4,234 nucleotides of DNA, from the IMG/VR virus record IMGVR_UViG_2713897140_000011, positions 1 through 4,234 of that record; one strand, given 5' to 3'. Positions 345 through 1,165 of this stretch are shown here, piece by piece. Origin of the DNA: a virus. Its lineage: Duplodnaviria > Heunggongvirae > Uroviricota > Caudoviricetes. The notes under the pieces were generated by a model. It was not told where the DNA came from, ran no database searches, and saw only the letters and a list, made by a program, of their open reading frames with translations. Made by a program: the position numbers and the translations under genes. The number at the start of each line of letters is the position of its first letter. The first letter of the stretch is position 1.

Positions 345-602
345 CTACTTCGCTTTTGCTTCCGCTCGCTTACGCCGGCGCTCTTCTTTCCTCTCGGCTT
401 TTGCCATGTCCATGAATGCCTGCATGATCGAGTTCCGCATCATGTAGCTAACAAAGTGATGATTGACACAGCCGTTGAGGCGCAGCTGCTCGCCAAACTC
501 ATCCACCGAGGCCAATGCTTCCATCATGCCCTTCTCGCCTTTCATGAACTCTGAGAAGTCGCGCCCCGCTCTGGAGGCGCATTCAATGACACGATCACTC
601 AT
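345..602 (-). CDS. Hypothetical small protein (85 aa) with a strongly basic Lys/Arg/Glu-rich C-terminal tail; translationally coupled to the upstream KilA-N gene
   Basis: ATG at 602..600 overlaps the TGA stop (601..599) of the upstream ORF in an ATGA arrangement. Codon usage is consistent with its neighbours. I recognise no family; the C-terminal tail AKAERKEERRRKRAEAKAK suggests nucleic-acid binding. Confidence 0.55.
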   Translation of the reverse strand: MSDRVIECASRAGRDFSEFMKGEKGMMEALASVDEFGEQLRLNGCVNHHFVSYMMRNSIMQAFMDMAKAERKEERRRKRAEAKAK

Positions 603-1165
603 CCCGGAAGCCCGGGGATCGTTATCTGCAGCTGGTTAGCCAGGGAGTTAATCTCAGCGACCAACACTGGCTTCGTATAGCGCCATGCCGCCAGCCCTTG
701 TCCACAGAAGCTCGCCATATCTTTTTTCTGATCAAACTCATGACACTTCATATTGAGCTGCGCACTTAAGCTGTTGCGATGCTGAAGTTCTCCGGTGAAG
801 TAGTCATCCAGGACTTTATAGGCTGCATATTTAAATCCGGGGTTTAGCCATGCTGCATAATCATAAGCAACAAACTTCCCGCCATATGTTCCACCGTGTA
901 CACCGCGCTCAGTAAAAACCACAGATTCGTGGTTTTTCTCCAGCTCGGCTAAGAACTCTTTGGTCTGCTTGTTTCGCAGGTAGTGGTACGGAGATTCAGA
1001 TTCACTTTTACCACTGGCTTTCCACATATCAGTGAGGCAGATCATGCCATCTTCACCGATACGGATTGGCTGATTGAAGAGGGTTAATGATTTCATGTCG
1101 TATACCTGTTCTTTGAAATGAACCTTTGCCGCACAGGAAACCAGCCCACCGAGGCTCGCCAGCAC
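599..1165 (-). CDS. KilA-N domain protein (phage antirepressor/Bro-like N-terminal DNA-binding domain); start is either GTG 1165 or, more likely, ATG 1096
   Basis: Translation from the ATG at 1096 begins MKSLTLFNQPIRIGEDGMICLTDMWKASGKSESESPYHYLRNKQTKEFLAELEK and later contains GGTYGGKFVAYDYAAWLNPGFKYAAYKVL. Both stretches resemble the conserved KilA-N pattern as I remember it. GTG 1165 has a GAGGA Shine-Dalgarno 9 nt upstream; ATG 1096 has a weaker AGGT. Confidence 0.65.
   Translation of the reverse strand: MLASLGGLVSCAAKVHFKEQVYDMKSLTLFNQPIRIGEDGMICLTDMWKASGKSESESPYHYLRNKQTKEFLAELEKNHESVVFTERGVHGGTYGGKFVAYDYAAWLNPGFKYAAYKVLDDYFTGELQHRNSLSAQLNMKCHEFDQKKDMASFCGQGLAAWRYTKPVLVAEINSLANQLQITIPGLPG

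Follow-up and report, generated by a model that had tools for sequence, protein, structure and literature searches.

A candidate two-gene accessory cassette with a predicted Shine-Dalgarno-masking leader in lambdoid prophages

The KilA-N gene and its coupled small gene

The window of this study, meaning the whole stretch of 4,234 nucleotides (nt) that was analysed (positions 1 to 4,234 of IMG/VR virus record IMGVR_UViG_2713897140_000011, Caudoviricetes), is the late region of an Escherichia coli lambdoid prophage, read on the minus strand; positions 140-4234 are 100% identical to E. coli CFSAN029787. It contains a gene for a protein with a KilA-N domain and, overlapping its stop codon, a gene for a basic protein of 85 amino acids (aa). 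Judged by sequence comparison, the two are a widely shared two-gene phage accessory cassette. An initial annotation had proposed such a module, and the proposal is supported in that the pair is kept as a unit in differing genomic positions. The features of the cassette are as follows.

599-1096, minus strand: gene of the KilA-N+ORF11CD3 protein, 165 aa, homologue of HK620 hkbK (Pfam; PGAP WP_000839225.1)
About 794-1072, minus strand: KilA-N domain of that gene, followed by the ORF11CD3 helical region at about 614-772
345-602, minus strand: gene of the 85-aa three-helix protein (phrog_875; HK620 hkbL; WP_001283921.1)
599-602, minus strand: ATGA stop/start overlap, the translational coupling junction
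1099-1207, minus strand: structured leader, a long imperfect hairpin of about 110 nt (fold, covariance model)
1217-1234, minus strand: GCGCA-N6-7-GCGCA element, a possible 4-bp hairpin between the terminator and the leader hairpin, nearly invariant in the alignment
1249-1275 (stem 1254-1275), minus strand: intrinsic terminator with a 9-bp GC-rich stem and a U run, just after parE (terminator scan, fold)
305-346, minus strand: strong hairpin whose first bases belong to the small-gene stop codon; no U run follows on this strand (-30 kcal/mol, z -6.2)

The KilA-N domain named in the initial annotation is recovered by Pfam in the upstream open reading frame (ORF) (PF04383, 57.2 bits against a gathering cut-off of 23.8, E = 1.8e-15), and the same protein has an ORF11CD3 domain (50.3 bits, E = 2.9e-13). 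Two starts had been considered for this gene, GTG 1165 and ATG 1096, and the true start is the latter, giving 165 aa. Aligned full-length homologues begin with MKxLTLFN or a close variant, which corresponds to ATG 1096, the exceptions being one gene-calling extension through the leader and one N-terminally truncated sequence; the Prokaryotic Genome Annotation Pipeline (PGAP) uses the same codon. The GTG start is rejected, its extension being unconserved as protein, interrupted in Klebsiella phages and inside a hairpin. The alignment indicates purifying selection on the KilA-N homologues.

KilA-N has been described as a DNA-binding fold (Iyer et al. 2002, as cited in PMC8585504), and the protein presumably binds DNA. 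An AlphaFold2 model (predicted local distance difference test score, pLDDT, 77) has the KilA-N alpha/beta domain followed by helices at residues 86-139 (very long) and 143-156; because two long helices follow the KilA-N domain, ORF11CD3 is taken to be a helical hairpin, and it is plausibly an oligomerisation or partner-binding element. Foldseek returned weak matches only, with the Mbp1 APSES DNA-binding domain in the top two (probability 0.89, E = 0.13), which is consistent with the known relationship of KilA-N and APSES. The KilA-N+ORF11CD3 architecture fits the Bro network of KilA-N, Bro-N, Rha, P22_AR_N, ANT, ORF11CD3, P63C and T5orf172 domains (Iyer, Koonin and Aravind 2002), whose members exchange domains: P0147 is Rha+ORF11CD3, the Ant protein of 933W is P22_AR_N+ORF11CD3, and others are KilA-N+P63C. 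Pfam finds P22_AR_N and ANT domains in neither protein of the pair.

The 85-aa ORF is a real gene under strong purifying selection. The initial annotation had recognised no family for its product; it belongs to phrog_875, a family of the unknown-function category, and matches the profile over its whole length (E = 3.2e-54, residues 1-85 on profile positions 1-85 of 85), with no match in Pfam, NCBIfam or PADLOC. Homologues number 138, all from Enterobacterales (Escherichia, Enterobacter, Citrobacter, Salmonella, Klebsiella, Leclercia, Rouxiella and others), so that the ORF is conserved. An exhaustive profile search of 1.84 billion representative proteins gave only 20 clusters at 50% identity, and the phrog_875-type family is therefore narrow. 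Compared with copies close to saturation at synonymous sites, the gene has a ratio of nonsynonymous to synonymous substitution rates (dN/dS) of 0.04-0.18, apart from a single comparison that gives 0.31. The alignment shows little or no variation in the motifs ECASRAGRDFSEF and GCVNHHF; the basic tail noticed at first, ERKEERRRKRAEAKAK, is present, and the C-terminus is basic throughout. AlphaFold2 predicts a three-helix bundle (helices 3-20, 26-42 and 48-84, the last of them basic; mean pLDDT 92). A metal site formed by C8, C45, H48 and H49 was considered and rejected, as C8 is alanine or serine in the distant homologues P0122 and P0132.

The overlap of the two genes is ATGA at 599-602, as first reported, and reads tcat on the plus strand, the KilA-N stop TGA (599-601) overlapping the small-gene start ATG (600-602). 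Conservation of the pair across prophages, which had been proposed as a check, is found in about 160 loci with a tight junction: ATGA in 85, and a stop codon, 2 nt or 1 nt and then ATG in 75. A 4-nt overlap is common by itself; a tight junction kept in about 160 loci of different phages exceeds chance. All 80 viral contigs with an identical small protein have KilA-N+ORF11CD3 directly upstream with the ATGA junction, and their Rz genes are merely 43-100% identical to that of the window. The pair also occurs in HK620, HK97, HK022, mEp235 and several other mEp phages, in many phages carrying Shiga toxin genes (Stx1/Stx2) and in Salmonella and Klebsiella phages, and such pairs are always annotated only as KilA-N or hypothetical. 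In E. coli phages the pair follows Rz; in Klebsiella phage RAH1 and many related contigs it is placed among the tail genes, with the major tail gene on one side and the tape-measure gene on the other.

The leader RNA and the edges of the cassette

Positions 1097 to about 1253 are conserved as DNA in both partner classes (upstream proteins with ORF11CD3 and with P63C), and not as protein. The leader folds into a long hairpin (minimum free energy, MFE, -48.4 kcal/mol, z -4.1), with GTG 1165 inside it, in which ACCUG (1200-1204) pairs with the Shine-Dalgarno (SD) sequence CAGGU (1104-1108) of the KilA-N gene. The SD of most relatives is AAAGG and its pairing partner CCUUU, the window variant being a displaced SD with a matching ACCUG insertion. 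When 20 diverse representatives were folded independently, the SD AGG paired with a distal CCU or UCU about 90-100 nt upstream in 15, and in the MAFFT alignment pairing in the two basal helices is 94%, falling to about 60% with the partner columns slid. A covariance model, for which eight sequences and the MFE structure of a single member served as input, detected 73 copies (44 distinct) and matches the window at 1094-1207 with 98.7 bits. In the model alignment of the 44 distinct copies the 28 pairs are 93.9% paired (slid controls at most 55%), both partners have changed in 22 of the 28, and covariation scores 0.37 (slid controls at most 0.09); none of 500 shuffles reaches the observed values. 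These covariation figures are somewhat inflated because the alignment was fitted to the model, and the MAFFT alignment and the independent folds agree with them. In diverse MAFFT alignments, misregistered indels kept RNAalifold from recovering more than part of the hairpin. The mean unpaired probability at -14 to -5 was set aside as too coarse a measure of SD masking. Rfam 15 (including C4 and isrK) gave no match at E<=1 to the window or to four other leader loci. The comparative evidence indicates that the leader hairpin is real, conserved and covarying, that it would mask the SD, and that it is uncatalogued in Rfam.

By blastn the leader is present in 317 phage records, and it precedes several kinds of gene (examples of copies are L183:1522-1634, L185:1523-1635, L184:1523-1634, L187:1521-1629 and L011:2571-2680). 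It is found before ant (P22_AR_N+ORF11CD3) of 933W and phage 86, between R and Rz; before an Rha gene in Salmonella phage VSe13; before a KilA-N-only gene in ST64B; and before HNH_3 or HNH_3+AP2 genes in phage ECP1 and a Scandinavium prophage. A phrog_875 gene is absent beside these leader-bearing ant, Rha, KilA-N-only and HNH genes, and the covariance model found no leader at one locus (L016) with a pair of Rha and small genes. As the leader occurs without the small gene and the small gene without the leader, the two are separable modules that are combined in this cassette. The Stx2a prophage L002 (7606-8309 and 6050-6972) has two leader-bearing cassettes: leader-Ant (P22_AR_N+ORF11CD3) between lysozyme and Rz, and leader-KilA-N+ORF11CD3-small after Rz. 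Because both proteins carry ORF11CD3, mixed oligomers are conceivable.

Hairpins flank the cassette, with a canonical terminator at its 5' end. This terminator after parE forms the 5' edge of the conserved cassette, and an equivalent one precedes the leader in other phages. RNAalifold predicts GCGC/GCGC pairing in the GCGCA element that follows it, but the paired positions are invariant and supply no covariation evidence. HK620 and an Stx2a prophage cease to resemble the window at 1263 and 1257 respectively, and on the other side HK620, HK97 and mEp235 are similar from 308, so that about 305/308 and about 1257-1263 are the edges of the conserved cassette. HK620, HK97, mEp235 and HK022 have a displaced copy of 257-342; the 305-346 hairpin marks the 3' edge and may be an RNA-stabilising or bidirectional termination element. 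Like a moron-type block, the pair is found at unlike positions, after Rz in E. coli phages and among tail genes in Klebsiella phages; the distinct base composition of a moron is not seen, GC content being 0.46-0.54 across the cassette and 0.43-0.52 nearby.

The rest of the window holds the following features, given in minus-strand gene order.

4177-4234, minus strand: 3' part of a phage tRNA gene
3666-3881, minus strand: P21-type holin
3033-3662, minus strand: 209-aa ORF between holin and lysozyme (phrog_1085, unknown-function category)
2434-2967, minus strand: lysozyme
Between lysozyme and the ParD/ParE pair, minus strand: Rz with embedded Rz1
1295-1829, minus strand: ParD-like/ParE-like toxin-antitoxin pair (Pfam)
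1-139: Rhs-core (YD-repeat) coding fragment, coding as far as TGA 148-150, abutting the prophage

The surroundings are thus as initially described, with a terminated toxin-antitoxin module (ParD/ParE, terminator 1254-1275) on one side and an Rhs-like fragment (1-150) on the other. ParD/ParE lies between Rz and the cassette in only a few related loci (L001, L025, L028, L065 and L077); in most phages the cassette directly follows Rz with no ParD/ParE between. The 209-aa ORF is an unusual insertion within the lysis cassette and has no Pfam, NCBIfam or PADLOC match. In the related genome CFSAN029787 the small and large terminase genes come after the pair, and the Rhs fragment of the window occupies the side where related genomes have cos and terminase. 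The junction at 139/140 between Rhs and prophage occurs in none of 5,426 complete E. coli genomes searched and may be a prophage truncation, a rearrangement or an assembly join.

Exchange of partners and comparison with known systems

The small gene is not confined to one kind of upstream gene. KilA-N+P63C proteins (about 250 aa) stand upstream of it in HK97, mEp235, HK022 and about 70 Klebsiella- or Enterobacter-type loci, with a junction of stop, 2 nt (rarely 1) and ATG; the KilA-N domain of this class is merely about 23% identical to that of the window. The small gene of HK97 has 98.6% DNA identity to that of the window over 308-587, though the genes before it bear no relation to each other, and each of the two small-protein subtypes is found with each partner class. 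P0122, a 61%-identical homologue, follows an Rha-family gene with ATGA in L016, within an arc-ant-rha-small operon closed by a terminator. P0132 has the small domain N-terminal to a fused T5orf172/MUG113 (hhalign probability 96%), beside a KilA-N+P63C gene. Since the small ORF follows the ORF11CD3, P63C and Rha classes, the constant feature is a gene coupled directly 3' of a Bro-network gene and not one particular partner protein. Between arc and ant of L016 (796-865, minus strand) there is a sub-threshold Rfam match to SymR (32 bits, gathering score 61), which may be a sar-like antisense RNA.

In a Klebsiella-type lineage (L157, L159, L160, L162, L163 and L166, at about 2800-3255) KilA-N+P63C has been deleted to its last 17 codons, together with the 3' part of the leader, and the small gene is intact in four of the six loci and has premature stops in the other two. 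The premature stops hint that the small gene is no longer of value once the partner or the coupling is gone. In a Yersinia locus and in L177, an uncultured relative of Erwinia phage phiEt88, a helical ORF of about 58 aa (MTKTEYNRI...) follows KilA-N+ORF11CD3 with a 4-nt overlap (L182:954-1130, L177:3067-3183, L176: about 1193-1370), and phiEt88 itself has the same reading frame with ATA instead of ATG. The Yersinia ORF has no detectable relation to phrog_875, the Erwinia counterpart not having been compared, and the 58-aa ORF may be an analogous partner.

As sequences the genes are not new. The same genes are hkbK/hkbL of HK620 (deposited 2001), gp73 (HK97p60)/HK97p61 of HK97, gp59/gp60 of mEp235 and the pairs in Stx phages 1717, 2851 and Stx2a_WGPS. 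The likeness lies in a small protein 96-100% identical, in its place behind Rz and in the tight junction, and hkbK has 96% identity to the KilA-N protein of the window; HK97, mEp235 and HK022 differ in having KilA-N+P63C and the stop+2 nt junction, and HK97p61 is frameshifted at its C-terminus, unlike the small protein of the window. None of the pairs in HK620, HK97, mEp235 and the Stx phages carries an assigned function. Unlike the listed domains of the Bro network, the 85-aa protein is usually a separate polypeptide joined by coupling, its sole fused form being N-terminal to T5orf172. No characterised antirepressor operon fits, and the literature searches turned up no work on the pair; Pfam and Rfam detect neither Arc/Mnt repressors nor an antisense control RNA in the window.

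Several systems resemble parts of the cassette. In phages P1 and P7 the immI region (c4 RNA-icd-ant) is an antirepressor-type operon with coupled genes under RNA control. In the lambda N leader (an RNase III hairpin) and at T4 homing endonuclease genes, a long hairpin includes the SD and translation depends on processing or on an alternative transcript; the leader described here is likewise a long SD-including hairpin 5' of a phage gene, with no sequence relationship to these. The protein BstA has about 300 aa, with its own C-terminal domain, and is encoded near the immunity region. It is a single protein with no significant similarity to the window pair beyond the KilA-N fold, whereas the cassette is in a late operon and not beside a prophage repressor. 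The KilA-N-like domain of BstA alone spans residues 32-147 (PMC8585504). RNA-level control and translational coupling at Bro-type genes are also known from P4 eta and the CI RNA (PMC10111431), the C4 and isrK families being likewise precedents. The window shares with P1/P7 immI and P4 eta the control of a ribosome binding site or of termination by RNA plus the coupling of adjacent genes, but its masking is by an in-transcript hairpin, with no trans-acting RNA found and no Rfam C4 or isrK match, and its cassette is in the late operon and not in the immunity region. No work on the function of either the pair or the leader came up in the literature searches, though an earlier account in a subscription journal may exist, nor was any description found of the coupled small protein, its partner promiscuity or the SD-masking leader. 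The Phi24B ant gene studied by Fogg et al. is a different, early-region gene, and KilA is not mentioned in the Phi24B expression study.

Proposed mechanism, alternatives and biological meaning

The reading preferred here, tentatively and at somewhat less than an even chance, is that the pair encodes a late-expressed, translationally throttled antirepressor-like or interference regulator with a co-translated partner. In this reading the region is a self-contained accessory unit passed horizontally between lambdoid phages and other temperate phages of enterobacteria; its order on the minus strand is terminator, leader of about 110 nt, Bro-network gene, 85-aa gene and terminal hairpin. Only Q-antiterminated late transcription would pass the 5' terminator, placing expression late in lytic growth; that Q-modified late transcription is the only way in is suggested by the canonical terminator together with the lack of a detected sigma-70-like promoter. 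The hairpin would hold initiation on the KilA-N gene low or conditional until, perhaps, it is opened or is cut by an enzyme such as RNase III, which acts on the lambda N leader. Read from the sequence, the only purine-rich stretch 5' of the small-gene ATG is GGG at -11 to -9; since the small ORF is without a good SD, its protein would be made mainly by ribosomes ending at ATGA. The amounts of both proteins would in that case follow from a single initiation event, and the form of the junction suggests equal (1:1) amounts. The KilA-N protein is expected to bind DNA and to oligomerise via ORF11CD3, and the small protein would be a detachable partner (adaptor, modulator or antidote) common to Bro-network proteins. 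The pair would probably act on other resident elements or on the host and is probably not an essential phage function.

A more specific version joins three claims, and its joint truth is rather doubtful: the leader of about 110 nt would be a new RNA family that masks the SD of Bro-network genes in more than 300 sequenced phages; the phrog_875 protein would be a dedicated partner, required for the activity of the preceding Bro-network protein or restraining it; and the leader and the small gene would serve as recombination arms that let phages exchange the DNA-binding protein between them.

A number of observations weigh against a regulator with a co-translated partner. Literature searches found no experiment or expression data for either gene. 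No sigma-70-like promoter was detected on the minus strand, which leaves expression in the lysogen neither supported nor excluded. The structure search matches the three-helix fold to generic helical bundles only. The same small-protein alleles occur with unrelated partner C-terminal domains, and even with an Rha protein, which argues against a tightly co-evolved interface. The evidence for decay after loss of the partner comes from six related loci only, and five loci keep KilA-N+P63C with the small gene reduced to 16 codons. Distant KilA-N+ORF11CD3 homologues (48-57% identity) in Erwinia phage phiEt88 and in Yersinia, Cronobacter and Salmonella loci are without an intact phrog_875 gene.

Among the alternatives, the best supported are a Kil/anti-Kil pair and a selfish homing-type cassette, while defence, packaging and frameshift explanations are poorly supported. 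P1 KilA has a killing phenotype, and a harmful KilA-N protein might be neutralised or limited by the small protein, with the leader and terminator silencing it in the lysogen. The tight throttling, by a terminator and then by SD sequestration, speaks for such a pair, as does obligatory coupling, by which neither protein would be made without the other; the small gene gathers stop codons after deletion of the partner, and the Bro-network protein P4 Eta combines Kil activity with translational coupling (PMC10111431). The five loci that keep KilA-N+P63C without an intact small gene do not fit, nor do the leader-bearing ant, Rha and KilA-N-only genes that have no such partner, and neither protein matches a toxin-antitoxin family in Pfam, NCBIfam or PADLOC, whereas the neighbouring ParD/ParE does; this explanation is considered unlikely. 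A homing-endonuclease-like cassette or remnant, whose leader, small gene and hairpin would be homology arms for the exchange of Bro-network or HNH genes, whose SD-masking hairpin would reduce damage to the host phage and whose proteins would be of little use to the phage, is rated slightly lower again. Hairpins masking the ribosome binding site occur in T4 intron and free-standing homing endonuclease genes, and the present leader also precedes HNH_3 and HNH_3+AP2 endonuclease genes; flanks are kept and the ORF between them replaced (the 98.6% identity of the HK97 small gene over 308-587, and a leader 72% identical to that of L012), the small domain is fused to the GIY-YIG-like T5orf172, and a mobilisation role for Bro-network genes has been suggested (PMC10111431). 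However, Pfam finds no nuclease domain in either window protein, the strong purifying selection on the small protein and on the KilA-N homologues indicates a selected protein function, and mosaic boundaries at gene edges are typical of lambdoid phages generally.

An abortive-infection module of the BstA type, in which KilA-N would sense or bind invader DNA and the small protein would be a co-factor or self-immunity factor, is improbable. In its favour are the KilA-N-like N-terminal domain of BstA, with which prophages defend against phages (PMC8585504), a weak hit in PADLOC to the candidate system PDC-S22 (E = 1.2e-8, about 30 residues), and the accessory position adjoining a ParDE module; but that hit is a fragment only, PADLOC gives none for the small protein, and the 165-aa protein with its ORF11CD3 tail has nothing resembling a BstA match. 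A defence role is also a poor fit because the protein would be needed in the lysogen, yet the cassette is in the late operon behind a terminator, has no promoter detectable by scan and has its SD masked. The position of the pair just upstream of the small terminase gene could point to a packaging accessory, a DNA-binding factor at cos or pac, and in L001, HK620, HK97 and Stx phages the pair does lie between lysis and terminase or HNH packaging genes. This was rejected as very improbable: the pair accompanies four unrelated systems (lambda-type Nu1/A, P22-type gp3/gp2, HK97 HNH/terminase and 933W-type) and also occurs inside tail gene clusters and in an arc-ant operon. Least credible of all is one gene read through a programmed frameshift at ATGA, for which P0001 (123 aa), a fusion of the ORF11CD3 end to the small protein, might speak. 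P0001 is a single sequence from one contig and, read from the sequence, no slippery heptamer precedes the stop; the P63C-class junction (stop, 1-2 nt, ATG) has a different frame relation, and the C-terminal ends of all three partner classes are conserved.

Taken by itself the pair is an ordinary moron-like cassette; most of the interest lies in the conserved leader RNA and the partner swapping. Few unexplained genes of temperate phages and satellites, the Shiga-toxin phages of pathogenic E. coli included, are as common as those of the Bro network (KilA-N, Rha, Ant-like). Here one such gene is placed in a unit of three fixed parts, namely a leader RNA, a DNA-binding protein and a coupled small protein, with the start codon of the KilA-N gene settled, and this unit is a concrete experimental handle. 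The strongly covarying RNA, which is outside Rfam, would account for the restraint of these possibly harmful genes within a late operon that is heavily transcribed. Should the pair act on prophage induction or on cross-talk with other elements, it could, speculatively, influence the release of phage and toxin in enterohaemorrhagic E. coli (EHEC).

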